This document shows, piece after piece, positions 1 to 25,811 of a stretch of DNA of 57,138 nucleotides (the stretch's first letter is position 1; every line of letters starts with the position of its first letter). The position numbers and the translations under genes are program-made. Source of the stretch: Candidatus Thorarchaeota archaeon (lineage in GTDB: Archaea > Asgardarchaeota > Thorarchaeia > Thorarchaeales > Thorarchaeaceae); assembly GCA_020348985.1 (NCBI GenBank), contig CP070761.1:1651227-1708364 (forward strand). Reading direction: 5' to 3'. Below the pieces are notes generated by a model. That model saw nothing but the letters and a program-made list of their open reading frames with translations. It was not told the origin of the DNA and searched no databases.

Positions 1-106
1 TTGGGGTGAGGTGTCGTCCACTGGGCGATGACGAATCTTGGGTTCGCAAGTAGGGAGAAGTCGTAACAAGGTATCCGTAGCGGAAGCTGCGGATGGATCA
101 CCTCCT
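1..106 (+). rRNA. rrs: 16S rRNA gene, 3' end (partial, archaeal type)
   Basis: Universal AAGTCGTAACAAGGTA, helix 45 TCCGTAGC-GGAA-GCTGCGGA and anti-SD terminus GGATCACCTCCT ending at 106. Confidence 0.97.
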
Positions 107-210
107 TTGATTGCCCATCCTTAGGATGGGTAGAAGTGGAGGCTGGCGGTGGTAGAACTACGGGTAATTACCCCACTGGCATTGCTGAGCACCCTTTTCA
201 TTTTTACAGT
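107..210 (+). repeat. 16S 3' trailer element, native copy (hairpins plus T-rich terminator-like tract)
   Basis: CCCATCC-TTA-GGATGGG hairpin (114-130), palindrome GGGTAATTACCC (162-173), then GAGCACCCTTTTCATTTTT. Recurs six times downstream. Confidence 0.85.
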
Positions 211-1003: not shown

Positions 1004-1158
1004 AACTCAGTACACCCTCTTATTCCATAAAATGGCTAGTGGCATATCAAATATCCTACGAAAATGTGTCTACTCTACACCTGAATCACAAGGCATCAAT
1101 GAGGATTGGAGTCGTACATGGCGTGCGGGGTCAGGCAAGAAGGGACTTGCCCTCCAAA

Positions 1159-1183
1159 GCATTGCTGAGCACCCTTTCATTTT
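1159..1183 (+). repeat. 16S trailer repeat copy 1 (3' part only)
   Basis: GCATTGCTGAGCACCCTTTCATTTT vs native 179-204 GCATTGCTGAGCACCCTTTTCATTTT (one T deleted). Confidence 0.85.
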
Positions 1184-1247
1184 GAATTGCTATTGCGTCT
1201 TGAAGCACAATAATTGGCTGGCACTCGGTCGCTCCGTTGGGTAATGA

Positions 1248-3465: not shown

Positions 3466-3845
3466 TTGCTCAACTGCTCTCGTGAGGTATGTTCTGGAGG
3501 CAATGTCTCTCGTGCTGCAACGCTTGAGGTCCTCCACCGTCTGAGACCAACTGCATCAGTGACCATTTGTCTTCCCCTTTTCCTAGCTGGAGATGAAGCA
3601 GAGAGGGAGTTTGCAAGGAATTCCTTCAAACCACAATTGATGGATGCGACAAGCTCTGTGCCGCTAAGGGCACGAAGAAGTATAGCAGTAAACCAGCCAT
3701 GGAGATGAATCAAGAGGAATATCTGGGCGAATCTTGCATAGATGTTGACGAAAGATGGAGAATAGAATGATGTAGTGAGCTAGTTGACAAAATCGCTCAA
3801 GACATTGCATCGTATATCGATCGTTTAAGAGATGAATTTAGGTGA
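3466..3845 (+). pseudogene. DGC-domain (putative zinc-binding) protein pseudogene, paralogue of 11491-11898
   Basis: Collinear with 11491-11898 but has a 1-nt deletion near 3620 and CGA->TGA at 3768-3770. Confidence 0.85.
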
Positions 3846-3849
3846 TAAC

Positions 3850-4128
3850 ATGTCTGACAAGGTTCTGGTGATGGTATTCGTGGCTATGGGGGTATGCGGC
3901 TGTAGCCAGTCTGGATTCCTAGGGCGCATCTATGAAGCCATCAGGAAATATAGAAATATTGCTGATTATAGGGAATACCAAGCCGACAGTGACATAGCAA
4001 AGAAATACGGAATTGGTTACTGTGGTGTAGTGGTTAGCAGCAAATCAGTGGGAAGCAATCCCACCACAGCTAAGATTGAAGAAGCCATTCTCAAGGAGAT
4101 TAATCAACAAGGCACAGAAGCAATATGA
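3850..4128 (+). CDS. Small thioredoxin-fold-like protein with CxC motif, paralogue of 11889-12182
   Basis: GVCGCSQSGFL motif; SD-like AGGTGA before the ATG; closely similar paralogue in the second ars cassette. Confidence 0.75.
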   Translation: MSDKVLVMVFVAMGVCGCSQSGFLGRIYEAIRKYRNIADYREYQADSDIAKKYGIGYCGVVVSSKSVGSNPTTAKIEEAILKEINQQGTEAI

Positions 4129-4227
4129 AGGATGAGCAGCATCCGCATCTTTTCTCACCTGACCTTGGACATAGCTTATACCTAAGTGCAAGTCTACAGA
4201 TGAATGAGGCGCAAGGAAAGATTGATT

Positions 4228-4245
4228 TATCGAGATATACAGTGA
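4228..4245. promoter_or_regulatory. Putative ArsR operator upstream of arsR (weak right arm)
   Basis: ATTGATTTATCGAGAT at 4221-4236 is identical to 5452-5467. Confidence 0.5.
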
Positions 4246-4356
4246 AGCACAGCAATCCACTGAAGACAGTGAAGTGGTTTGAATGTTTCAGAGAACAGAT
4301 CTCACGATGTCAAGTTCTGACGAAGCATGCTTGATTTGCAAAATTGGGGTGTCGTT

Positions 4357-4653
4357 TTGAAAAGAGACAAACAAGCTGAATGGAGAGTCCACTTCCACAA
4401 GGCCCTAAGTAATCCTGAAAGACTGAGAATAGTGGATTTCCTTGCAGACGGCGAGCAATGTCAATGCGATGTGTTTCCGCAAATTGGACTGTCTCAGTCT
4501 ACAGTCTCTTCATACCTCACTCAACTTGTGAGAGCCGGTATCCTGAATGTAAGGCGCGATGGCACCAGGAAGCTCTATAGTCTCAGTGACCCACGCATAC
4601 GCAGAATGATACAAGACATACGTGGTCTTGCTGCCGAAATGACAGCTACATGA
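4357..4653 (+). CDS. arsR: ArsR/SmtB-family transcriptional repressor
   Basis: KALSNPERLRI...EQCQCDV (equivalent to the ELCVCDL As(III) box)...SQSTVSSYL...G. TTG start after GGGGTG; upstream ATG at 4327 is an alternative. Confidence 0.9.
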   Translation: MKRDKQAEWRVHFHKALSNPERLRIVDFLADGEQCQCDVFPQIGLSQSTVSSYLTQLVRAGILNVRRDGTRKLYSLSDPRIRRMIQDIRGLAAEMTAT

Positions 4654-5347: not shown

Positions 5348-5458
5348 TCTGGTGGTGCGATTTGCGTCGAATCCCATCAGCCACACTCTGTCAAGGCCAT
5401 ATCTTTGAGTAACCATAACCTAGCGAATATCACCTCACGACTCTCCGAAAAATTGATT

Positions 5459-5476
5459 TATCGAGATTATACGGTA
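5459..5476. promoter_or_regulatory. Putative ArsR operator upstream of the DUF5714-lplA operon
   Basis: TATCGA-gattat-ACGGTA; shares TATCGAGATTAT with the acr3 site. Confidence 0.6.
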
Positions 5477-5608
5477 AATGAGTGTGATGCATACCAGGAA
5501 TCTGAATCTTAGCACTCTGTGAAGGCAGTTGTTCTCTACACCATTGTCTTACAGAATGGTATCCATTATCACCGAGACCAGTGAGGCGCTTTGTGGAGGA
5601 AGGAATCA

Positions 5609-6331
5609 ATGAATGAAATTGGATTTCCTTGTGTGGTGTGTGGGAAGAGACTTCTTGAGACTCGAGGCGATGTCATCTCCTGCAGCTACTGCGGGCACGA
5701 CGAGAAGAGCGATTTCGTATGCAAAGACCGTCATTTTGTCTGTGAGACCTGTCGAACGTGCACTCCTACAGAGATAATCCTGAAAACATCCGTGGCTACA
5801 CCTACGGATGACTCTCTGTTTTTGGCGAATCTCCTTATGCATCATCCGGCAATACCAATGTCCGGCCCAGAACACCACCTTCTAGTCCCTGCGATTTTGC
5901 TGACAGCCACACATAATGCTGGGCATAGAATGGCTCTTGAATCACGGTTACGCCAAGCATTGAAACGTGCTAATAGATTCGGATTAGGGAGCTGTGCGAA
6001 TCTGGGTGCCTGCGGCGCGGCAATGGGCGTACCGATAGCAATCAGTCTGTTAATTGGCGCCGAATACACAAAACCAGAAGAGCGTAAGACCGTGCTTCGC
6101 GCTTCTGCCGTTGCCATGACCGCGGTTGCCAATCTGCCTGCACTCAGATGCTGCAAAGCATCAGTCTATTCATCTCTGAGTGTAGGAACTGATTTCATCA
6201 GGCGGGAGTTGGAATTAGGAGTCCCGCCGGTCCCTCATCCGACTTGTCATTTCGAGGGCAACAGCCTCGAATGTGTACGACAGGAGTGCCCATACTTCGA
6301 ACAGAGCAAATTGGACGGCGATTTGACGTGA
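5609..6331 (+). CDS. DUF5714-like cysteine-rich protein with N-terminal zinc-ribbon motifs
   Basis: MSGPEHHLLVP, GSCANLGACGAA and RCCK motifs; several N-terminal CxxC pairs. Confidence 0.8.
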   Translation: MNEIGFPCVVCGKRLLETRGDVISCSYCGHDEKSDFVCKDRHFVCETCRTCTPTEIILKTSVATPTDDSLFLANLLMHHPAIPMSGPEHHLLVPAILLTATHNAGHRMALESRLRQALKRANRFGLGSCANLGACGAAMGVPIAISLLIGAEYTKPEERKTVLRASAVAMTAVANLPALRCCKASVYSSLSVGTDFIRRELELGVPPVPHPTCHFEGNSLECVRQECPYFEQSKLDGDLT

Positions 6332-7410
6332 AACAGGCGTCAGTAGTCCGATTCTATACTGGCCCAAATCCGGGCGGGATCTGGGACGCCGCTCTGGATG
6401 AAGCGATTCTTCGTGTTACGTGTGAGGACCACGGGCCTCTCACGGTTCGAGTTTGGTTGAATAAGAGTCCTGTTTTGGTTCTTCCAAGAAGCCCAATGCA
6501 AAAAGAAGGAGCTTTTATCCAAGAATGCAGCACAAGAGGAATTCATGTCACCCGCGGACTCAGTGGTAGAAGATGTCTCCTACATGGTCCTAGTGTCCTG
6601 AGCTTTTCCCTTGTTGACGAATCGAATGCTTTAGCATCTGGAGATCTAGAAAGAGAGATTTGCCAATTGCTCTCTCCTGTAATACGGGGAATCCAGTCGG
6701 AGATTCCAACAAGTGAGATTGCGTTTGACCAAGGCCATGTTATCGTAGGAGAATCGATTGTAGGTGCATTCAACACATCCTACTACTTCGACTATCTTAT
6801 GCTTCAAGGTGTTGTTCATGTTCATAGCAATCAACACTTCACGACCCTCAAGATTACGAAAGAGGGAACACGTCTTACGTGTCTTGATCAAATCCAGTCT
6901 CATGTTTCAAGCCAACATATCATGGATGCAATTAAGAAGTCAATTGCACAGAATCATGGATTGCAGATGACCAACATGCCTGCCAGTGTCAGAGTAACTG
7001 AACTCATGACTGAACTTCATCAGTGGAAATACACGAATAATGACTGGGTGTACCATCAATTAGAACCACTTGCATTGGGTCGAATTCTATTGGAATCTTA
7101 TCTTGCTTATCCACCTACTAATCGCTGCCGCGAAATAATAGCCATAGTTGATGAAATATCGAAGAAATATGCGGACAAAGTGGAATGTCGAAAATGGTTA
7201 CGAGGTCGGGGTTTGATGTCGTGGCTCAAGGGTGTGCCGCCGGGCCTTCGTCCAAGCGGGGGAGTTGTCCAAGCTTCCAAGAAGAATATCGTGCCAGCTG
7301 TAGTAGTGCAGGGGAATATCACACATGAGAGGAAAGTGCCGGTTTATGATGACCTCTGTGAAATCGTCGAGACGGCCTACAACGTGACATTTGGTGGGAC
7401 ATCTGAGTAA
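6328..7410 (+). CDS. Lipoate-protein ligase-like domain (catalytic motifs degenerate) fused to a C-terminal thioredoxin-like domain
   Basis: ALDEAIL...VRVW N-terminus as in LplA. RRxSGGG has become RGLSGRR and K[IV]SG has become SIVG. The tail has PPTNRC...PAVVVQG...KVP. GTG start overlaps the upstream stop. Confidence 0.75.
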   Translation: MKQASVVRFYTGPNPGGIWDAALDEAILRVTCEDHGPLTVRVWLNKSPVLVLPRSPMQKEGAFIQECSTRGIHVTRGLSGRRCLLHGPSVLSFSLVDESNALASGDLEREICQLLSPVIRGIQSEIPTSEIAFDQGHVIVGESIVGAFNTSYYFDYLMLQGVVHVHSNQHFTTLKITKEGTRLTCLDQIQSHVSSQHIMDAIKKSIAQNHGLQMTNMPASVRVTELMTELHQWKYTNNDWVYHQLEPLALGRILLESYLAYPPTNRCREIIAIVDEISKKYADKVECRKWLRGRGLMSWLKGVPPGLRPSGGVVQASKKNIVPAVVVQGNITHERKVPVYDDLCEIVETAYNVTFGGTSE

Positions 7411-8237
7411 TGGATACGACGTGGCGTGTTGTAATCTCAGAAGAAACTGACCCAACGTGGAATCTTGCAGTTGATGAAGCTATTCTTAGAAGTGTTATAG
7501 ACGACAACTCGCCAAACACTGTACGTATCTGGCGAAGCAGCGAGTCGGTCATAATAGGTCGCAGTCAAGATACAAGAGCGGAAGTAGACATTAGATTGTG
7601 TAATGAACTCAGCATACCAATTCTTCGACGTTGCAGTGGTGGAGGAACGGTATACATGGACCTTGGTAACTACAACTACTCTGTCATCGCAAATAGTAGC
7701 GTTTTCACTCAAGTGAAGGCAGTCCACCACATTGCACGTTTCATGTGTATGGCAGTAGTTAACCTGTTGTCGCGGCTGGATTGTGATTCAAGATTTGTTC
7801 CCCCTTCCAGCGTCTTCATTGAAGATTCGAAGGTTTCTGGATCTGCTCAGTACTTTCTCTACGAAGGCATTCTCCATCATGGCACGCTGCTGGTCAATGC
7901 AGACCTAGAACTGATGCAAGAGGTCCTGGCTCCAAATCCCACGCTTGCCAAAAGACTACGGTCTGTCCCAAGCGTATCAACCCCTGTCGTAAACCTGTCA
8001 TCGCTTTTCGGAAAGCAGTATCAATTCGAAGAGATAGCAAATCTACTGGTTGATGCAATCATGGGCACTTTGGGAGCACACAATTGGGATTTGGGACCGA
8101 CCAGCACGAGTGAGAACGAACTTACACAGCTGCTCTATGATACCAAATACTCGGACCCCTGCTGGCTTTTGGGAGTACAACGGCAAAAGCAGATTACTAT
8201 TGATTCGACAGCCCTCCCTACTAATAGAATCCAATGA
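7410..8237 (+). CDS. lplA: Lipoate-protein ligase A / octanoyltransferase family protein (catalytic domain only)
   Basis: NLAVDEAIL, RRCSGGGTVYMD, KVSGSAQ (catalytic Lys) and HHGTLL; no C-terminal LplB domain. Confidence 0.9.
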   Translation: MDTTWRVVISEETDPTWNLAVDEAILRSVIDDNSPNTVRIWRSSESVIIGRSQDTRAEVDIRLCNELSIPILRRCSGGGTVYMDLGNYNYSVIANSSVFTQVKAVHHIARFMCMAVVNLLSRLDCDSRFVPPSSVFIEDSKVSGSAQYFLYEGILHHGTLLVNADLELMQEVLAPNPTLAKRLRSVPSVSTPVVNLSSLFGKQYQFEEIANLLVDAIMGTLGAHNWDLGPTSTSENELTQLLYDTKYSDPCWLLGVQRQKQITIDSTALPTNRIQ

Positions 8238-8317: not shown

Positions 8318-8412
8318 CCATCCTTAGGATGGGTAGAAGTGGAGGCTGGCGGTGGTAGGACTACGGGTAATTACCCAACTGTCATTGTTAAGCACGCTTT
8401 CTCTTTTGCAGT
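8318..8412 (+). repeat. 16S trailer repeat copy 2
   Basis: 8318-8358 is identical to 115-155 (41 bp); 6 mismatches over 83 bp against 115-197. Confidence 0.95.
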
Positions 8413-8510: not shown

Positions 8511-9101
8511 TCAATGATCATTTAATCCCTTTCCATTGAGAATTCTCTGAACATGTTTTTCAACCCTTGACTCCCGAGTTTTGGATTGCTTGGGTGCAGA
8601 AAAATATAGAATGTATGCTCTTTGCCGTCCCGGCGTCAATGCATCAAAAGCAGTTTTCAAGGCAGGGCTTTCATCTAATTTCCTTTGAAACTCTTCGGGA
8701 ATCATGAATTCTGTAGTCTTTTTGAAATCCACCTTCAAACCGGCTTTTTCTACTTCAACGGCTTCATGAATATAGACTTTCAAGATTGTTTCCATCTCAG
8801 CTATTTCCTGAACATTGGTGAACCGAATCTGGCGCACCGCCTGCGTATTTTCCCCGGGTTTGGATAGTATACCATTGGCATCTTCTATCAAGGCACCTTT
8901 GAAGAAACTGAGCACGCAGTATTCTTTGAATCCCCCTATTATTGCCACGTTATTTCCCTGAAACGTGTAACAAGGTTGACGCCACTTCAATTCTTCCGTC
9001 AGCCCACAGTCAAGTATGATCCTTCTCAATTCGCCCAATTCCTTCTGCCACTTTTGGGCTCTTGCCAAAAATTCATCAACCTTAGGATTCATTCTATTCA
9101 T
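8511..9101 (-). CDS. YdeI/OmpD-associated family protein (DUF1801 + OmdA-like domain)
   Basis: EELKWRQPCYT, LSFFKGAL and AFDALTPGRQRAYILYFSAPKQSKTR motifs; bacterial-like sequence. Confidence 0.9.
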   Translation of the reverse strand: MNRMNPKVDEFLARAQKWQKELGELRRIILDCGLTEELKWRQPCYTFQGNNVAIIGGFKEYCVLSFFKGALIEDANGILSKPGENTQAVRQIRFTNVQEIAEMETILKVYIHEAVEVEKAGLKVDFKKTTEFMIPEEFQRKLDESPALKTAFDALTPGRQRAYILYFSAPKQSKTRESRVEKHVQRILNGKGLNDH

Positions 9102-9159
9102 TTGTTGGCGCTCCGAAACGAAGTGAGCCTATATCTGCCTACAATTCCTATCTATTCTT

Positions 9160-9390
9160 TAACAAGGTATCCGTAGCGGAAGTTACGAATAAAAGAAGAT
9201 GAGAGTCAATCTAGCCTTCCATCAATTACCTCCTGTGATTTCTCTCTCATAGAAGTAGAAGCAGATTGATCTCTCTTCAGAGAGAGAGGTTCGGGTCTTC
9301 GACGGGGCAGGCGGTGCATTCGAAGAAGTTGTCCATCGCCACATTCAGACTTGCCACACTCATGCTGCCGAGCACCCTTTCATTTTGCAT
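9160..9390 (+). repeat. 16S trailer repeat copy 3, including a degenerate duplicate of the 16S 3' end
   Basis: 9160-9182 TAACAAGGTATCCGTAGCGGAAG is identical to 64-86. Then ATTACCTCCTGTGATT (~9225, cf. ATCACCTCCTTTGATT), TAGAAGTAGAAGC and GAGCACCCTTTTCATTTT (~9370), with insertions between them. Confidence 0.85.
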
Positions 9391-9549
9391 ATGTTGTCCT
9401 GTGACTAGGCAGCATCCTCATTCTCTCCTCAAGGTCATCTTGAATCGAGATTCTGCCGTTCTGGTTGTCGAATGACTCCAAAGGCTCGACATCAAGATCC
9501 GGTAAACGACTTTCAAGAAACACGGCGCGCCTCCGCAGCAACACTGATA

Positions 9550-9567
9550 TATCGAAATAAACCGATA
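9550..9567. promoter_or_regulatory. Putative ArsR operator upstream of the hdrA-like/gcvH-like operon
   Basis: TATCGA-aataaa-CCGATA followed by AATCGAA, the same downstream flank as the acr3 site. Confidence 0.7.
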
Positions 9568-9595
9568 AATCGAACATTGAAACGAGCTGATTGCG

Positions 9596-9970
9596 ATGAG
9601 TTCCGAAAGACCCGCGTTCATCATGTGTGTGTGTACGGGCAAGTGCCCGGGTTTTGGGAAGATGGATATTTGGGACTTCATCAATACAGTTCGAATGGCC
9701 CTTCCGGTTCAATATGGGATTATCCATCCCCAATTATGTGAGGAGGATGGTGATCGGTACCTGGAAGATGTTTTGAAACCCAATCAGAAGTTCTTCATTG
9801 GAGGTTGCGCTCCAACAATGCAGTACAAGCTCTTCCGGGATGCGTTCCAGAAAAGGAACCTGGACGTGAAAGGCGATCTTGTACCGATTGATGTGCGCGA
9901 CATGACTACCGAAGAGGCCATTGGTCGAGTGTCTGAGGAGCTGAAGAAACATGGATATCACCTCGAGTAA
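9596..9970 (+). CDS. Stand-alone protein resembling the HdrA N-terminal domain
   Basis: IMCVCTG...LCEEDG...GGCAP...LFR mirrors the HdrA pattern VYVCHCG...MCSDPG...AACSP...TFR. Confidence 0.7.
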   Translation: MSSERPAFIMCVCTGKCPGFGKMDIWDFINTVRMALPVQYGIIHPQLCEEDGDRYLEDVLKPNQKFFIGGCAPTMQYKLFRDAFQKRNLDVKGDLVPIDVRDMTTEEAIGRVSEELKKHGYHLE

Positions 9971-10259
9971 TCCGAGTCCAGATTTGACCTTCATGGGCGT
10001 TGATCGGGAGAAGATTCCTTGGTGGCCAACCATTGACCTGCAAGATTGTGATGGGTGCAGTGGTGACTACGACTGTCTGAAGTTCTGCCCGCACGGCGTC
10101 TACAAGCCCCTTGAGAATTCCTCGAGAATTGCCGTTGAGAATCCCTACAACTGTGTGGTCTTTTGCCAAGCGTGTAAGAAGATGTGCCCGAAGAATGCTA
10201 TCTCCTTTCCCTCAAAACGAGCCATTCTCGATTTGATCAAGAATGAGCGTGCAAAATAG
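9951..10259 (+). CDS. 2x[4Fe-4S] ferredoxin-family protein
   Basis: WWPTID, CDGC...CLKFCP and CVVFCQACKKMCP. Confidence 0.9.
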   Translation: MDITSSNPSPDLTFMGVDREKIPWWPTIDLQDCDGCSGDYDCLKFCPHGVYKPLENSSRIAVENPYNCVVFCQACKKMCPKNAISFPSKRAILDLIKNERAK

Positions 10260-10270
10260 GGTGGTGTTGG

Positions 10271-11107
10271 GTGGAACGAAAATACATCCTTCCATGCGCA
10301 GGATATGACCGTCCCGGCGGTCAGGTTTCAAGAGCCGCCGCAGAAAGACTTGCCATCATTCGTGACGATGTGATTATCGGAAGCATGGGGGCACTCTTCA
10401 AGGAACGTCCTGGTGAGATGCGTGACTATAGGACCTCCGATGTATTCTGTCTTGATGGTTGCGGAGAGAACTGCGCCTCTGAACTTGCACGTGCTAGAGG
10501 TAGGAATGACAGCACCAGCATTGTCATCCATGAGGTTGTGGGCTCAATTGAGAACTTCGAAGGAAAAGTAGACCGCTTGATGCAGTCTTTGACCCAAGAA
10601 ATTGACAAGACAAGGCCTAGGGTTTCGTCCAAGATCACTTCGGAACCTCCACATGAGATTGAGCTCATTGAGGAGAAGTTCGACAAGTTTACACTCAAGG
10701 TGGCCAAGGGTTTGAAATACTCTGACAATGACTTCTGGGTCAGCACTGAAGGAGAACAGGTTCGTGTAGGAGTCTCAGACTTCCTTCAACAGATGATGTC
10801 CGATGTGTACTTCGTGGAACTCGCTGAGATTGGCACACATGTAGACATGTTTGACGACGCAGGTCTGATGGAATCGACAAAGATTCTCGTCGAGATTATA
10901 GTCCCTGTGTCGGGGTCTATAGTAGAAGCCAATATCTCCCTTGAGGACAGCCCTGAGTTCATCAATGAGAGTCCATATGATAAAGGCTGGCTCTATGTCC
11001 TTAAGCCGGATGACATCAATGAACTGGAACTACTCCGAGATGCTCACGACTACATGACTTATGCCTTGGCGAAAGCAAAGGAGGAGATTGGAAAAAGGGT
11101 GGAGTAG
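10271..11107 (+). CDS. gcvH: DGC domain fused to a glycine-cleavage-H-like lipoyl carrier domain
   Basis: N-terminal ILPCAG...LDGCGENCA. C-terminal LKYSDNDFWV...VGVSDF...MESTK (lipoyl Lys retained)...PVSG...INESPYDKGWL. Confidence 0.85.
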   Translation: MERKYILPCAGYDRPGGQVSRAAAERLAIIRDDVIIGSMGALFKERPGEMRDYRTSDVFCLDGCGENCASELARARGRNDSTSIVIHEVVGSIENFEGKVDRLMQSLTQEIDKTRPRVSSKITSEPPHEIELIEEKFDKFTLKVAKGLKYSDNDFWVSTEGEQVRVGVSDFLQQMMSDVYFVELAEIGTHVDMFDDAGLMESTKILVEIIVPVSGSIVEANISLEDSPEFINESPYDKGWLYVLKPDDINELELLRDAHDYMTYALAKAKEEIGKRVE

Positions 11108-11110
11108 AGA

Positions 11111-11494
11111 ATGAAGAAAGTAGTAATTCCATGCAGTGGAATAGGAAAAGCATTTGGTGCTGTTGCACGTGAAGCAACGTATCTTTTGACCGACTCTGAT
11201 CATTCTAATGAATATGTGACAATATGCCTTCCATTGTTGATGACCGACGATGTAGAGTCCAAACAGAGGGTTACGGAATCCAATGTCTATACAGTTGATG
11301 GATGTCCAAAGCGCTGCGCATCAATCCTTGTTAGACATGCAGGGGGAAAACCAGTCATGGAGATAATGACGCCGAAGGTTCTTGCCGCTAACAAGGAACA
11401 CAAGCCCGAGACGGTTCTGAACATTGGCGATGGTGGTCAGCTGCTGGCAACAGACATAGTGAATCTAATTCTTAATCATGGAGATGACAAGTGA
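11111..11494 (+). CDS. DGC-domain putative zinc-binding protein
   Basis: VIPCSG...TICLP...VDGCPKRCA. Confidence 0.85.
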   Translation: MKKVVIPCSGIGKAFGAVAREATYLLTDSDHSNEYVTICLPLLMTDDVESKQRVTESNVYTVDGCPKRCASILVRHAGGKPVMEIMTPKVLAANKEHKPETVLNIGDGGQLLATDIVNLILNHGDDK

Positions 11495-11898
11495 TGGCCT
11501 TCAAACCCAAGGTGGGTCTTATCTCTTGTAGTGGTGAGGCATGTTCCGGAGGGAATATCTCTCGTGCCGCGACACTTGAGGTCCTACACTATCTGAGACC
11601 AACTGAAACGGTGACTATTTGTCTTCCTCTTTTCCTGGCTGGAGATGAAGGAGAACGGGAGTTTGCGAGAAGCTTCCCTACAATCACAATTGATGGGTGC
11701 AGCAAACTCTGTGCGGCTAGGGGTACGGAAAGGTATAGCAGCACACCAGCCATGAAGATGAATCTAGAAGAATATCTGGGAGAATCCTGCACTAGCACTG
11801 ATGAGAGATGGAGACTAGAACGAAGTAGCGAGCTTGTCGATAGAATTGCTCAAGACATCGCATCTCATGTTAATCGTCTAAGAGAAGAATGGGGGTGA
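11491..11898 (+). CDS. DGC-domain putative zinc-binding protein
   Basis: LISCSGEAC...TICLP...IDGCSKLCA. Confidence 0.85.
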   Translation: MMAFKPKVGLISCSGEACSGGNISRAATLEVLHYLRPTETVTICLPLFLAGDEGEREFARSFPTITIDGCSKLCAARGTERYSSTPAMKMNLEEYLGESCTSTDERWRLERSSELVDRIAQDIASHVNRLREEWG

Positions 11899-12182
11899 AT
11901 CAAATATCCGATAAGATTCCAGTAATGGTGTTCCTTGCAGTGGGAGTTTGCAGTTGCAGCCAGACTGGATTCCTAGGGCGCGTTTATGAAGCCATCAGGA
12001 AATACAGAGATGTTGTTGACTATAGGGAATACTCCGCTGGAAGTGATATCGCAAAGAGATATGGGATTAGCTATCGTGGGGTCGTGGTTGGCAGCAAATC
12101 AGTAGGTAGCAATCCCACCACAGCAAGGATTGAAGAGGCCATTCTCAAGGAAATCGAAAAGCAAGACTTAGATTCAATGTGA
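11889..12182 (+). CDS. Small thioredoxin-fold-like protein with CxC motif
   Basis: GVCSCSQTGFL; paralogue of 3850-4128; overlaps the upstream stop. Confidence 0.75.
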   Translation: MGVNQISDKIPVMVFLAVGVCSCSQTGFLGRVYEAIRKYRDVVDYREYSAGSDIAKRYGISYRGVVVGSKSVGSNPTTARIEEAILKEIEKQDLDSM

Positions 12183-12316
12183 TGAATCTACGTGATCTAT
12201 TATACCGTGAGACACACTCCGTCTACTACTATGGAAGTGAATTCCCTTCCAACCTAACTGAATCTGCCAAGGCCCGATACTTCAACAACCACATTCTGAC
12301 GAATGTCAGTCTGCAT

Positions 12317-12362
12317 TACGGGTAATTACCCACCCGTCACTTTTGAGCACCTGTTCATTCTT
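12317..12362 (+). repeat. 16S trailer repeat copy 4 (3' half)
   Basis: TACGGGTAATTACCCACCCGTCACTTTTGAGCACCTGTTCATTCTT aligns without gaps to 159-204. Confidence 0.85.
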
Positions 12363-12512
12363 CCGTCTGCTATTTGCGACTCCGGACTATTCTCATCGAT
12401 AAACAGAATTAAACTCACACACATTGATCTTGGTCAATCGCGAAGGACCAAGATTGCTTCAAACCCTCTTGAGAGCTTGATATCAAGTACATAAATGGCG
12501 AAATCTCTGCAG

Positions 12513-12547
12513 GTGCGTCTGACTAGGACGCACAAAACGAAAAAGAA
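12513..12547 (-). terminator. Possible terminator of the ferredoxin-domain gene
   Basis: On the minus strand a T-rich tract follows the stop, then a GTGCGTC-N7-GACGCAC hairpin. Confidence 0.35.
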
Positions 12548-12549
12548 TG

Positions 12550-13269
12550 CTACGCTGTAACTACTCCCTTGACATTTTCCTTCAGTCTTGTTCCATCCCG
12601 ATCGATTCTTGAGATTATGCCCTTTAGAGTGTGCAGCAGACCCGCAAGATCTTCATCCAGTTTCCTATGAGTAAGAATCTTCTCGACATTCAAGAGAGCG
12701 AGCTGCGCTTCATAGATTGTATCATAAACCGTACTGGGATACTTGAGGATGTATTCCTCTGACAGAACATGCTGGATTAGATCCAACAACTCGCCTGTTC
12801 CATAAACCTTCATGTCAATGGCCATTTTGGGACACGCGGAAACGCAGACACCACAGCCATGACATCTCTCTTGACGAACAAACAGTGTTCTGTCCTCTAT
12901 GATCGGAGCTTTCCACGGGCACATTTCGGTGCATAGGCCACAAAGAATACAACCTCTAGCACCATCCATTCTTACTTCAATGGTTGATAGCAATGCAATC
13001 TCTTCAGCATCCAGAGTTTCCTTCGAATCCCCAAAAACAATTGGATCCGGCACCTTTGACTTAAGCTCATCTGGATCGTGAAGGATTGCAGTAGTGCTTC
13101 CTCTCTTTCTGAGCTCTCTCTCAATCCGAGAGATGTAGATTGTGCAAGCCTGGATCGTATTCTTCAATGAAACAAGCATGTGCTTGAGATCAACGTCTGG
13201 ATGTTCAGGGAGCTTTCTAGGAAGAAGGACCCTGAATTCATGTGTCCGCCATTTCAGAGTTTTACCCAT
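12550..13269 (-). CDS. 4Fe-4S dicluster domain protein with helical flanks
   Basis: CILCGLCTEMCP and CHGCGVCVSACP. Confidence 0.85.
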   Translation of the reverse strand: MGKTLKWRTHEFRVLLPRKLPEHPDVDLKHMLVSLKNTIQACTIYISRIERELRKRGSTTAILHDPDELKSKVPDPIVFGDSKETLDAEEIALLSTIEVRMDGARGCILCGLCTEMCPWKAPIIEDRTLFVRQERCHGCGVCVSACPKMAIDMKVYGTGELLDLIQHVLSEEYILKYPSTVYDTIYEAQLALLNVEKILTHRKLDEDLAGLLHTLKGIISRIDRDGTRLKENVKGVVTA

Positions 13270-13278
13270 TATACCACC

Positions 13279-13710
13279 TCACCTATACCTTTGATCAACG
13301 CGAAGCCCCACTGAAAGTGTGACTTCCGGTGTGATCAACCCATTGTTAAGGAGGAATCTATCAACTTCATTCTGAAAGATCTGCTGAAGCGACTCCTCCT
13401 GCTTTCCCTCGGGCACGATGACCCGAGTCTGCACTTTGAGCGAGGTCAGATTCTTTTGCTCGGCCATCTTGCTTTTCGCATACTCGCCCATTGCATTCGA
13501 TTGGAGTTCTATCACTCCCACTCCAATGTCTTTCGTAGCCATCTCTAGAAGAAGATTAATGCAGGCCTCGCCAGCCGCCAAACACAAGTACTCTGAGTAG
13601 TCTGGATCGAAACATTCAGGCGCAACCGTCGAATAACGTAGAACGGGGGATTCCGAGTCTGTTGTTCTGACCTCGTGTTCACCAAGTTCATCTATTCTTT
13701 TCAACTTCAT
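13279..13710 (-). CDS. OsmC-like protein (divergent)
   Basis: EYLCLAAGEAC resembles the OsmC/Ohr PxELLLAALxxC motif; size and layout fit; resolving Cys not evident. Confidence 0.55.
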   Translation of the reverse strand: MKLKRIDELGEHEVRTTDSESPVLRYSTVAPECFDPDYSEYLCLAAGEACINLLLEMATKDIGVGVIELQSNAMGEYAKSKMAEQKNLTSLKVQTRVIVPEGKQEESLQQIFQNEVDRFLLNNGLITPEVTLSVGLRVDQRYR

Positions 13711-13796
13711 ACGAAGTATGTCTTCCGTGTATATTCACCTCCATGACCAGAACCACCTCTTTTGACACAGACATCAATCGTCTCATTGATTGAGGT

Positions 13797-13940
13797 CTAC
13801 GTGTGGTTTAGGCAACAGAGGGTGAATTCATTCAGACCTTTGTTTCTGGCTCCTTCAATTACTCTTTGGAGAACCCTTGATGACATCTGTGCATCAAAGG
13901 ACTGGTTCTCATGTACATATTTCGATTGAAGTCTAATATA
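13797..13940 (-). pseudogene. Possible decayed GNAT acetyltransferase fragment
   Basis: Translates YIRLQSKYVHENQSFDAQMSSRVLQRVIEGARNKGLNEFTLCC, resembling the GNAT motif A/B region. Confidence 0.3.
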
Positions 13941-14210
13941 TTTGATGAGTTATGAATCAAAAGAACACCAGAGAATAATGCACGATAAGCGACTCCTTCG
14001 TCATGAAGCTGTCCGTTTTGTGCCATAGGAACTCCGTTCTTGAAGAAGCCATATTTTCAACTAAAAAGCAACTCTTCGATTGCTGCCTATTTCAACAGAA
14101 TCCTTTCAGATGTGAGACTGGGGCAATTTCGGTCAGTTTCGCCTCGTCGTCGAGAGTGAAGACATCTATTATGGTTTCTGAAGCGTTTGCAGTCTCGAAC
14201 ATCACAAAGT

Positions 14211-14303
14211 CCCATCTTTGGGATGAGTAGAAGTGGAGGCTTACGGTGGTATAACTACGGGTAATTACCCAACTGTCACTGTAGAGCACCCTTTCATTCT
14301 ACA
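14211..14303 (+). repeat. 16S trailer repeat copy 5
   Basis: Gapless match to 114-197 with about 11 mismatches; GGGTAATTACCC intact. Confidence 0.95.
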
Positions 14304-14366
14304 TCAGTCAAGTTTGAGCTTTCGTTGAACTGCATGCTTATTACTAATCTCTCGCTCGGTTTTGTC

Positions 14367-14936
14367 ATGAGCAGAGTTCTAATTCTGAACGGGAGCGCTA
14401 GAGCAAAGGGCAATACCCGTTTTCTAATCAATCAGTTGAACAGGGTTCTAGAAGAGAAAGGATTGGAATCAAGTATTCTTCAACTTCACGAACTCAATGT
14501 CAAGCACTGTCGAGGATGCTTCTGGTGTTACAAGGGTTTTCCACTCCGATGCGTTCAAGATGACGATGATATGAATGGGATCTACCCTACTATAATCGAA
14601 GCTGATGTAATCGTTTTTGCATCACCCATTTACTGGTTCAATTATTCTGGTCAACTGAAATTATTCATAGATCGATTGGTGGCATTGCATGTCAAAGGCG
14701 GTCACAAGCTAGATGGAAAACGATTTGCTGCCATCTTTGTATATGGAGACACTAATGTTGAAGAATCCGGTGTTCAACATGCTATAGCGTCCATCAAACA
14801 TCTAATACGTTACATGAAAGGGGAGACCATAGGGATTGTTCATGGAACTGCAAACGATATTGGGGATGCCGAAAAGAATACCACATTAGTTGCTGAGGTT
14901 CGTGAATTAGCTAACAGGATTTGTGATGCATCTTAG
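14367..14936 (+). CDS. Flavodoxin-family / iron-sulfur flavoprotein (NADPH-dependent FMN reductase fold)
   Basis: LNGSARAKGNT, CRGCFWC...C..DDDM, ASPIYW and KLFIDRL. Confidence 0.9.
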   Translation: MSRVLILNGSARAKGNTRFLINQLNRVLEEKGLESSILQLHELNVKHCRGCFWCYKGFPLRCVQDDDDMNGIYPTIIEADVIVFASPIYWFNYSGQLKLFIDRLVALHVKGGHKLDGKRFAAIFVYGDTNVEESGVQHAIASIKHLIRYMKGETIGIVHGTANDIGDAEKNTTLVAEVRELANRICDAS

Positions 14937-16502: not shown

Positions 16503-17171
16503 TTACTTTTGGAGCAGTTTACTCAATCGCATCTTCTCCTCAGGAGCCAACAATCGGTAACCATCCAGTTTCTCAAGCGGAATATAAAACGTCGGGGCGA
16601 TACACTTTGGGTGATGCCATCTATAGGATAGGTGTTCTTCATAGAAATATGGCTCCCCTATTCTGAATCGTCCTTCTTCTATTGGTCTTCCACAAGATCG
16701 GCATTTAGATCGTCCTGATTTTGCAGTCTCAACCTTCCATACCGGCTCGGGTTCTTTCTTACTTCGCTTCAGTTTTTCTAGGAAGTCGATAGGCTTCTGA
16801 CCCACCATCTCGATTGTGAATCTAAGATTGAACGAATCATATTCACTAGGAGAGAATAGAATCACAATGTCACCATCCTTTAACGAGTCTTTGATAGTCA
16901 TGTCTGGCGGCCATCGTTTGGTCTGTTTCATGTATTCAAGCGCTTGCTCTGCTAGTATCATACTGGCTTCCTTCTTTGAAATATCCCTTACCCCAGTTTT
17001 TTCGGCAATCCCATAATCTGTTTCAATGTACTTTGCACCCTCTTCTGTAACACCTCTAGATTTTATCAATACCACAGACCCTACCAGTACTGATTTTTGC
17101 AGGCGCCTTAGTCTGAATGTTTTAGTATTTACCCAGTATGCCCAATCCACTTCATAATCCACTTCGGACAT
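16503..17171 (-). CDS. Protein with C-terminal PARP-type zinc finger (paralogue 1)
   Basis: VETAKSGRSKCRSC...RFRIG...RWHHPKC equals the zf-PARP C-x2-C...H-x2-C pattern. Confidence 0.85.
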   Translation of the reverse strand: MSEVDYEVDWAYWVNTKTFRLRRLQKSVLVGSVVLIKSRGVTEEGAKYIETDYGIAEKTGVRDISKKEASMILAEQALEYMKQTKRWPPDMTIKDSLKDGDIVILFSPSEYDSFNLRFTIEMVGQKPIDFLEKLKRSKKEPEPVWKVETAKSGRSKCRSCGRPIEEGRFRIGEPYFYEEHLSYRWHHPKCIAPTFYIPLEKLDGYRLLAPEEKMRLSKLLQK

Positions 17172-17330
17172 CCAATATCGACCTGCCCGATTTGCTGCCT
17201 TAGCCCCTGGCGGCTCTCCCATACGATTGGGAGTGTTCGTTTGTGGTGTGGCGAATAACCGATTTCATAACACAAGCTTGTGTCACGCCAAGAACAGCCG
17301 CATCAAGAAAGATGCCTATCGAGTTTAACA

Positions 17331-17778: not shown

Positions 17779-18492
17779 CTACTGTCTCAAGAGCCGCTTC
17801 AGACGCAATCTCTCGCTTGCGTTCAGGTTCTTGTATCCATCAAGGTTTTCAACATCATCCGCATCAATCCTTTTTGCCACACATCTCGGATGATGCCATC
17901 TACAAAAGATGCTCCCTTCACTGAAGATTGGTTCACCGATTCGGAATCTGCTTTTTAGGATTACATCTTTGCAGGAATAGCACTTTGTCTTCCCTGACCT
18001 GGCAGTTTCAACTCTCCATGATGGGTGCTGTCGTGTATCATCTTTCCCGAGTCGTGCCAAGAACATCTCCGGATCATCACCAATCAACTCTCGTGTCATA
18101 ATAAGAGCAAAGGAGTCATACTCAGTGGGCTCGTACCAAACCTCCACATCTCTCGATTCTAGAACTCTCTTCCTCGATGTGAATGGAGGCCAATGATTCG
18201 TCCCTTGCATGTACTCAAGAACTTGCCTAGCAAGTATAGTGCATGTTTGTTTCTTTGTTAGCTCCACTATGCCTGTTTCATCAACTATGCCAAAAGAAGA
18301 CCTTACGTACGTTCTCTCATCATCAATACTCTCTCGACTCTTCACCACGATGATTGCACCAACAGGAGCATGCTTCTTGACTCGCTTGAAGTTCAACGAA
18401 TCCACATCAATCCAATACGCCCACTCGGTTTCTATCTTAACCCAAACCGGTCCATGTCGATTGGGTTCCGATATTGCCCCAGATTGCATCAT
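17779..18492 (-). CDS. Protein with C-terminal PARP-type zinc finger (paralogue 2)
   Basis: VETARSGKTKCYSC...RFRIG...RWHHPRC; N-terminal WAYW domain shared with paralogue 1. Start uncertain (18492 or 18507). Confidence 0.85.
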   Translation of the reverse strand: MMQSGAISEPNRHGPVWVKIETEWAYWIDVDSLNFKRVKKHAPVGAIIVVKSRESIDDERTYVRSSFGIVDETGIVELTKKQTCTILARQVLEYMQGTNHWPPFTSRKRVLESRDVEVWYEPTEYDSFALIMTRELIGDDPEMFLARLGKDDTRQHPSWRVETARSGKTKCYSCKDVILKSRFRIGEPIFSEGSIFCRWHHPRCVAKRIDADDVENLDGYKNLNASERLRLKRLLRQ

Positions 18493-18530
18493 GTTTGCTT
18501 TCAACATGTTAATCGCCCGCATTACACATA

Positions 18531-18583
18531 CTGTAAACGATTGTATACAATATGTCATCAGATTGTTATAAACTTGTCTACAA
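18531..18583. promoter_or_regulatory. Phased TTGTATACAA-like box array over the zf-PARP promoter
   Basis: Boxes at 18531, 18541 (perfect), 18552, 18563 and 18574, spaced 10-11 bp; overlaps a minus-strand TTTATAA. Confidence 0.65.
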
Positions 18584-25647: not shown

Positions 25648-25753
25648 GACTCACCATCGGAAAACGCTGTATCACTGCATTCTATCATGAATCTATCCTT
25701 TTCTATTAGGTCTGAATCTCGTCTCAAAATCAGTCATCGACATAATGCTATCA

Positions 25754-25811
25754 GTAGTAGGACTACGGGTAATAACTCCGCCGCCACTATTAGACAACCT
25801 TTCGTTTTCCA
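25754..25811 (+). repeat. 16S trailer repeat copy 6 (highly decayed)
   Basis: GTAGTAGGACTACGGGTAATAACTCCGCCGCCACTATTAGACAACCTTTCG aligns without gaps from position 149 onward; differences are mostly transitions. Confidence 0.7.

Follow-up and report, generated by a model that had tools for sequence, protein, structure and literature searches.

The Pelagibacter HVR is an rRNA-bounded replacement island, and homology-facilitated illegitimate recombination combines one homologous with one illegitimate joint. Additive flexible islands have been described at the 3′ ends of tRNA and tmRNA genes of Alteromonas (PMC3698932), and in the fGI-2 island of Methylopumilus the final 20 nt of tRNA-Lys are repeated (PMC10872708). 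Integrons and CALINs, including those of archaea (PMC9668308), carry their cassettes between repeated structured sites, whereas the pdif modules of Acinetobacter (PMC6449649) are adaptive modules that lie between copies of a housekeeping site and owe their movement to housekeeping machinery. The nearest Asgard case is HeimM2 of Ca. Heimdallarchaeum (PMC8813620), mobile DNA located directly behind the sole 16S gene; the accessible part of that report describes one 8-kb element with its own homing-endonuclease homologue and no array of tail copies. In the literature searched, which left most subscription papers out of reach, we found no earlier description of cassette arrays built on rRNA tails.

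The Thorarchaeota locus analyzed here resembles each of these systems in part. Like the tRNA and tmRNA islands, it holds sequential cassettes of variable size and content at one conserved locus behind a stable-RNA gene, with direct repeats of the 3′ end of that gene at the unit borders. Unlike those islands, which have a short fixed att core, its repeats are 15-230 nt long, fixed at the 3′ end and ragged at the 5′ end; furthermore, the target is the 16S tail, no integrase was found in or beside the island, and tails are exchanged between genera through helix 45. With integrons and CALINs, it shares cassettes of about 1 kb with one or two genes, toxin-antitoxin and GNAT cargo, a repeated structured site, and genes common to different domains. 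However, IntI was not found, 41% of the cargo open reading frames (ORFs) are reversed instead of being mostly co-oriented (251 on the + and 175 on the - strand, by simple ORF calls), and the repeated site at the unit borders appears, from its sequence, to be a variable-length rRNA tail rather than attC; the archaeal integron study mentions neither Thorarchaeota nor rRNA (PMC9668308). Unlike in pdif modules, with their 28-bp two-arm XerC/XerD sites and Xer proteins, the copies are all direct and of variable length, the conserved motif is a processing-stem arm followed by a T-tract, and no Xer-like protein was found in this genome (86% complete). The Pelagibacter HVR and homology-facilitated illegitimate recombination offer the parallel of conserved rRNA as an anchor and of one homologous plus one illegitimate joint, but the Thorarchaeota island grows by addition, and a copy of the anchor stands between its units. 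Neither the Cas1, fixed-length duplication and polar growth of a casposon or CRISPR-like system, nor the reverse transcriptase (RT) and spliced copies of a retro-copy or target-primed retroelement, nor the intron-encoded LAGLIDADG endonuclease of a homing intron at 16S position 1498 were found at the arrays. The array works like an additive tRNA-3′-end island and looks like an integron or pdif array, but neither the integrase nor the fixed site of these systems was found.

The window, that is, the whole 57,138-nt stretch of DNA that was analyzed, is one entire contig of a metagenome-assembled genome (MAG; G000, genus g1, completeness 86%) in which contigs are joined by 100-N spacers. It begins inside the 16S rRNA gene, so that just the final 106 nt of the gene are present, and the 5′ end and leader sit on a separate contig, at G000 position 1854808. 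The gene is single in this genome and lacks introns at both 3′ sites discussed below. Its trailer and 5′ leader are predicted by folding to pair as the 16S processing stem (-72.6 kcal/mol), and we infer that the T-tract at the end of the trailer is the terminator. No 23S gene was found in this 86% complete genome, the 16S gene being without one behind it, and there is no tRNA gene in the window. Window positions 1-97 (helix 44/45) match genomes of genera g6 and g3 at 100% identity but the two genus mates at only 92-98%; either the 3′ part of the 16S gene has recombined or the contig start is chimeric, both being possible.

Behind the stand-alone 16S gene lie co-oriented, 5′-truncated copies of its tail (the 3′ end, the processing-stem arm and the terminator), each of which closes one unit (Table 1). 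Six copies were identified in the window (at 1136, 8318, 9160, 12315, 14211 and 25747), all on the + strand, and no further copy of comparable score occurs elsewhere in the genome. Position labels such as U1498, A1499 and A1531 follow E. coli numbering. The cassettes have features of their own: a paralogous block (3482-4128 and 11534-12182, 78-85% identity) recurs in two different cassettes, with a copy at 3466-3708 that looks shortened; a tandem pair of paralogues, each with a zf-PARP zinc finger at its C terminus, lies at 16503-17222 and 17779-18558; and two lipoate-ligase genes and a DGC plus glycine-cleavage-H fusion occupy separate array cassettes (6244-8237 and 10271-11107). A partly palindromic AT-rich motif is repeated upstream of several cassette operons (2285-2319, 4216-4236, 5447-5483 and 9538-9574) and is possibly an ArsR-type operator, an HTH-like ORF being present at 4327-4653.

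Table 1. Features of the 16S locus and the cassette array, in window coordinates
Feature	Position	Strand	Basis or remark
16S rRNA 3′ end (helix 44 part, helix 45, anti-Shine-Dalgarno)	1..106	+	Rfam SSU_rRNA_archaea positions 1372-1478
Native short trailer: hairpin, processing-stem 3′ arm, conserved motif 183-194, T-tract	107..207	+	pairs with 5′ leader
Tail copy 1, short, not own type	1136..1187	+	sequence comparison
Tail copy 2, own type, 90% identical, begins in first trailer hairpin	8318..8412	+	
ydeI cassette gene (DUF1801 + OmdA)	8511..9101	-	78% amino acid and 78% fourfold-site identity with Anaerolineales gene
ydeI upstream region and cargo/tail junction, TTTAA	9102..9162	+	junction recurs in 12 other genomes
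Tail copy 3, 16S 3′ end from about U1498 through helix 45; 3′ arm decayed	9160..9193	+	9160-9182 identical to 64-86
Hairpin intron, bulge-helix-bulge type, 32 nt, directly before anti-Shine-Dalgarno (after about A1531)	9194..9225	+	homology to g8 intron
Anti-Shine-Dalgarno copy, one change	9226..9234	+	sequence comparison
Long-type trailer as in other genera; ends with conserved motif 9366-9377 and T-tract (9366-9390)	9235..9390	+	alignment with native tails
Cassette block, ferredoxin-like and GCV_H/DGC genes	9537..12160	+	same order behind ydeI and tail in genus-g6 genome G082
Tail copy 4, own type, 79%, truncated	12315..12361	+	
Tail copy 5, own type, 87%	14211..14300	+	
Tail copy 6, own type, most decayed (about 70%), last copy found	25747..25808	+	

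The first-pass annotation had taken 9160-9390 for a fossil duplicate of the host's own 16S end. The 23-bp identity that it reported is exact (9160-9182 against window positions 64-86 of the 16S gene, 23 of 23 nt, chance expectation genome-wide about 1e-5), and the decay that it saw in the helix-45/anti-Shine-Dalgarno (anti-SD) segment is real, the 3′ arm of helix 45 having undergone five C>T/G>A transitions such that its fold is weakened to -7.2 from -16.2 kcal/mol in the native gene. The insertion that was counted as part of this decay, however, is an intron found at the same site in other genera, and the supposed trailer fragments turn out to be one continuous trailer of a foreign type. Indeed, in the alignment with the 16S ends of related taxa that had been proposed as a check, about 230 nt align end to end with the native tails of genera g6, g3 and g8, with a local score of 222 against 50 for the host's own tail and a global identity of 73-75% against 46%. 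Thus, 9160-9390 is the whole 16S tail of another genus in a mildly decayed state, comprising helix 45, intron, anti-SD, long processing-stem arm and terminator.

Given this alignment and an intron that the native genes of g1 lack, we consider the tail foreign rather than a duplicate made by the host. That it is a decayed duplicate of the host's own, or ancestral, 16S end, or was vertically inherited, would fit the 23-nt identity with the native gene, and a long, intron-bearing tail could be the ancestral state; we give this reading very little credence because all 3 native genes of g1 have short trailers and no anti-SD-site intron, the flanking own-type copies are equally or more decayed, and the intron is 30/32 identical to that of another genus although neutral sites are saturated between genera. 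The foreign, intron-bearing copy is surrounded by copies of the own type (8318, 12315, 14211 and 25747) and therefore most likely came ready-made with its cassette, so that a target duplication of the own 16S end is not supported. An assembly chimera at a conserved 16S word would be conceivable in a MAG built from short reads, rRNA being prone to chimeras, but the chance of it is negligible: the copy is decayed and hence no live 16S, its junction recurs in 12 other genomes, the same junction word is found in a JGI contig, and a tail copy is present in the single-contig genome G048 as well. Moreover, a Logan contig of public run X1, an assembled contig rather than raw reads from what may be the source sample of G000, covers 9071-14775 with 38 differences in 5705 nt and reaches 89 nt leftward beyond 9160, which means that the join exists outside the G000 assembly as well, and the search for a chimeric join at this position came out negative.

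The insertion at 9194-9225 is 30/32 identical to an intron at the same site in intact 16S genes of genus g8. The anti-SD-site intron is present in 12 native 16S genes, where it adopts a bulge-helix-bulge (BHB) fold and its removal restores the conserved rRNA end (exon join by eye). Both 9194-9225 and its native homologues show the 4-bp helix with 3-nt bulges and are thus predicted to be archaeal BHB rRNA introns. A further 30-nt BHB-type intron follows about A1499 in 15 of 30 native genes and splits the 1492R primer site. In size, hairpin and BHB shape, the 9194-9225 insertion matches the short (<50 nt) hairpin introns of Thermoproteales 16S genes, although the 13 intron loci listed for those do not include sites near 1499 and 1531 (PMC4496867). 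No endonuclease-bearing allele was found for the Thorarchaeota 16S hairpin introns. Altogether, Thorarchaeota 16S genes contain up to five insertions of about 30 nt, namely after about 871, 1317 and 1358 (intron-free numbering) and the two 3′ BHB introns, and the set varies between 16S genes that are 99% identical (L064, L071, L074, L075, L081, L130, L021 and L008). Longer insertions in or beside helix 45 include about 90 nt in the helix-45 loop of L017/L125 (G021, a Thorarchaeota genus) and, in other Asgard families, about 170 nt in L167 (G048, ~3880-4047) and about 30 nt after helix 45 in L160 (G040).

To the left of this tail lies the ydeI cassette. The ydeI/tail junction at 9160 is found again in 12 other genomes, which belong to genera g3, g6, g8 and g15; the left neighbor of ydeI differs in nearly every genome, and behind the junction there are at least five types of tail, with or without intron, helix 45 alone being common to all. 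In G028 and G101, the tail behind ydeI best matches the native tail of the host; the one in G016 looks like the other copies of that genome. One junction followed by different, often host-type tails indicates that crossovers occurred within helix 45, in agreement with the earlier proposal of a crossover inside the conserved 16S 3′ end, although the event emerges from comparison across genomes and cannot be placed within G000. These tails are most simply explained by one capture event with later crossovers or conversion in helix 45, and the 9160 junction is both old and mobile. The TTTAA at the junction is possibly a microhomology of 2-3 nt; read on the minus strand, it may also serve ydeI as a TATA box. 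A JGI contig (L175:1-230) opens with the same junction word after 3 nt of upstream flank and continues into an undecayed, intron-bearing tail, an arrangement that would be expected after a fresh crossover.

Transfer between genera is apparent at fourfold sites, which were used because the YdeI protein is conserved, so that the raw nucleotide identity (76-85% for ydeI and 63-67% for the backbone) was not taken as proof. The ydeI gene of G000 retains 71-82% identity at these sites with other genera and 78% with an Anaerolineales bacterium (about 50 sites per comparison), whereas four backbone genes retain only 26-31% between genera; the earlier idea that conserved rRNA lets DNA of other lineages recombine in is supported. 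The ydeI tree is mostly unresolved and the 16S-body tree has 8 open forks, so neither names the donor. In the genus-g6 genome G082, ydeI is likewise followed by the tail and then by the 9537-12160 block, an arrangement that points to entry of the segment as one piece; the block shows 72% nucleotide identity with G082 and 38% at fourfold sites.

The array is one of many. The first-pass annotation had suggested looking for 16S fragments behind the 16S gene of other Asgard genomes, and in relatives such fragments abound at cassette borders: 214 tail copies were identified in the fetched loci of 40 Thorarchaeota genomes, and the terminator motif yielded 276 matches, compared to 10 for a reversed control, with at least 2 matches in 61 of the 86 family genomes. 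Copies within a locus are all co-oriented (0 of 64 loci are mixed), and the 182 units between copies range from 0.3 to 8 kb (median, 1.2 kb). For 134 of these units, a relative was found in another genome, and orientation agreed in 237 of 239 pairs. Among the 133 cargo proteins, PIN toxins and antitoxins, GNAT proteins and methyltransferases lead; one cassette encodes an IS200/IS605-type TnpB (1 of the 133, alignment A1), and TnpA was not found in five genomes. In g1, g3, g6 and g11, a shared backbone lies beyond the arrays, and an age gradient along the arrays is not supported (5 of 9 negative). Other Asgard families have isolated tail copies, which reach into helix 44 in G040, G222 and G153 but not in G226 and G048. 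In G001, G006, G015, G017 and G021, and in G037 of a sister family, the native tail has no downstream copies in the DNA fetched, so arrays are not universal. Neither the tail nor the terminator motif was found in viral contigs.

Native 16S ends may bear marks of the same exchange. The 5′ leaders follow genus (86-91% identity within g3 or g6) but the native trailers do not (58% between G004 and G028, 69% between G004 and G070), a mismatch consistent with tail replacement to which gain or loss of hairpins could contribute. Leaders pair with foreign trailers, and folding energies do not single out the native pairs; trailer swaps are therefore tolerated.

We think it probable, if not firmly established, that the Thorarchaeota arrays are integrase-free additive gene-cassette islands for which the 16S tail serves as the docking site, and we favor, with similar reservation, their formation by rare illegitimate capture followed by spread through homologous recombination between tails. 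The anatomy of the array, the foreign origin of the 9160 copy and the transfer between genera are seen directly or strongly implied by the comparisons above. Capture would join foreign DNA between the terminator and a re-copied, 5′-truncated tail, as an insertion with a duplication of 15-230 bp, probably through microhomology break repair at a heavily transcribed end. Cargo with a tail on its right would then spread via ordinary homologous recombination (RadA) between tails, a step for which the evidence argues strongly and for which the substrate could be either an excised circle or linear DNA with the cargo between two tails. Helix 45 is identical across the family, and tails that retain it could cross over in any genus; such a crossover would spare the cargo junction, and everything behind it would take on the intron state and trailer of the recipient. 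Tails that are not native decay. The 9160 copy would have arisen and undergone recombination in a lineage with introns and long trailers, and would have entered G000 within the segment of ydeI, tail and block. Points against this model are that no circular intermediate or capture enzyme was seen in the data, which are MAG contigs throughout, that the arrays show no age gradient, that a weak DprA-like match was obtained in only 4 of the 5 array-rich genomes and none in G000, and that the model offers no reason for the uniform 3′ ends of the copies or for the limit at 1498 described below.

The uniform 3′ ends could be explained if an unrecognized site-specific recombinase or transposase acted in trans and crossed over at the terminator motif, in the manner of integrons, pdif modules or tRNA islands. 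The motif is near-invariant and the 3′ end sharp, similarity between copies stopping within ~20 nt past the motif in 206 of 233 cases; some discrete units share both ends between genera (for example, G005/G022 at 86%), and the cargo is rich in toxin-antitoxin genes. Nevertheless, we regard this explanation as improbable. Tyrosine integrases (PF00589) are absent from G000, from every array contig and from 57 of the 86 family genomes, integrases are not among the 25 most frequent families listed for the cargo proteins, and no Cas1, resolvase or Y1 transposase is common to the five array-rich genomes; the conservation of the motif is explained by its being the base of the processing stem; and crossovers 110-200 nt upstream of it are required for the exchange of tails behind ydeI, whose left ends vary. 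No tyrosine recombinase of any sort, not even XerA, was detected in G000.

The 5′ ends of the copies are ragged, starting 0-210 nt upstream of the motif, but in the Thorarchaeota family no tail begins upstream of 16S position about 1498. Helix 45 is retained in 41 copies, which represent about 30 independent junctions and without exception begin between -2 and +14 of the 3′ splice site of the first intron, and the helix-44 part is found once per genome in 86 genomes. The limit holds in short- and long-trailer lineages alike and is thus positional. These observations, along with the fact that SSU/1498 is a known archaeal intron site (PMC6125680) that carries LAGLIDADG_2 genes in CPR bacteria (PMC11270868), would suit a site-specific cut at 1498-1500, by a homing-type nuclease or one tied to the intron hairpin, as the start of capture: the gene would be repaired off a donor copy, synthesis would run through the donor terminator and cargo, and the product would be joined back to the right end, which, after slight resection, would form the downstream tail, with later spread as in the preferred model. 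This scenario seems unlikely, given that 84% of the copies are trailer-only, that tails outside the family extend into helix 44, and that the 86 genomes contain no LAGLIDADG_1 match above the cut-off and no LAGLIDADG_2, the LAGLIDADG_3 matches being confined to long ORFs on contigs other than those of the arrays, with none in G000 or G070. A wider version, tentative and somewhat doubtful in our estimate, holds that the arrays are a dedicated Asgard capture platform in which a cut or RNA-processing event at 1498-1500 would license tail duplication around incoming DNA; the result would be integrase-free, integron-like arrays, with helix 45 as their universal attachment site, through which bacterial genes would be taken up and genera would trade introns and 16S 3′ ends as well.

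Fixed 3′ and ragged 5′ ends, with copies reaching from the 3′ splice site of intron 1 at most to the T-tract, are also what might be left by an RNA intermediate, that is, a 3′ fragment of pre-rRNA, from the EndA cut to the terminator, that was ligated to other RNA and reverse transcribed. This route is already disfavored and in our judgment most improbable: unspliced introns in the copies and the proportion of antisense cargo argue for a DNA route, the second intron being retained in the tails, and, furthermore, ydeI has its promoter side at the junction, copies start in the 5′ arm of helix 45 rather than at its 3′ base, and no RT was found in the five array-rich genomes. Hence capture and homologous spread at the DNA level remain our preferred account.

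These results define a route of gene gain at one locus in Thorarchaeota and, sporadically, in other Asgard families. Cassettes pass between genera so far apart that their neutral sites are saturated, and one of the genes carried was recently shared with a bacterium. An essential single-copy rRNA gene is used as portable homology, with the consequence that inheritance does not keep 16S 3′ ends, trailers and introns together in this group. The arrays explain the breaks of Thorarchaeota contigs behind the 16S gene, and their short motif is usable for harvesting the accessory genes of this group. Use of the 1492R primer calls for caution, since half of the native genes examined carry an intron within its site. 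Finally, that the copies have so sharp a 5′ limit is a testable clue to a possible cut at 1498-1500.
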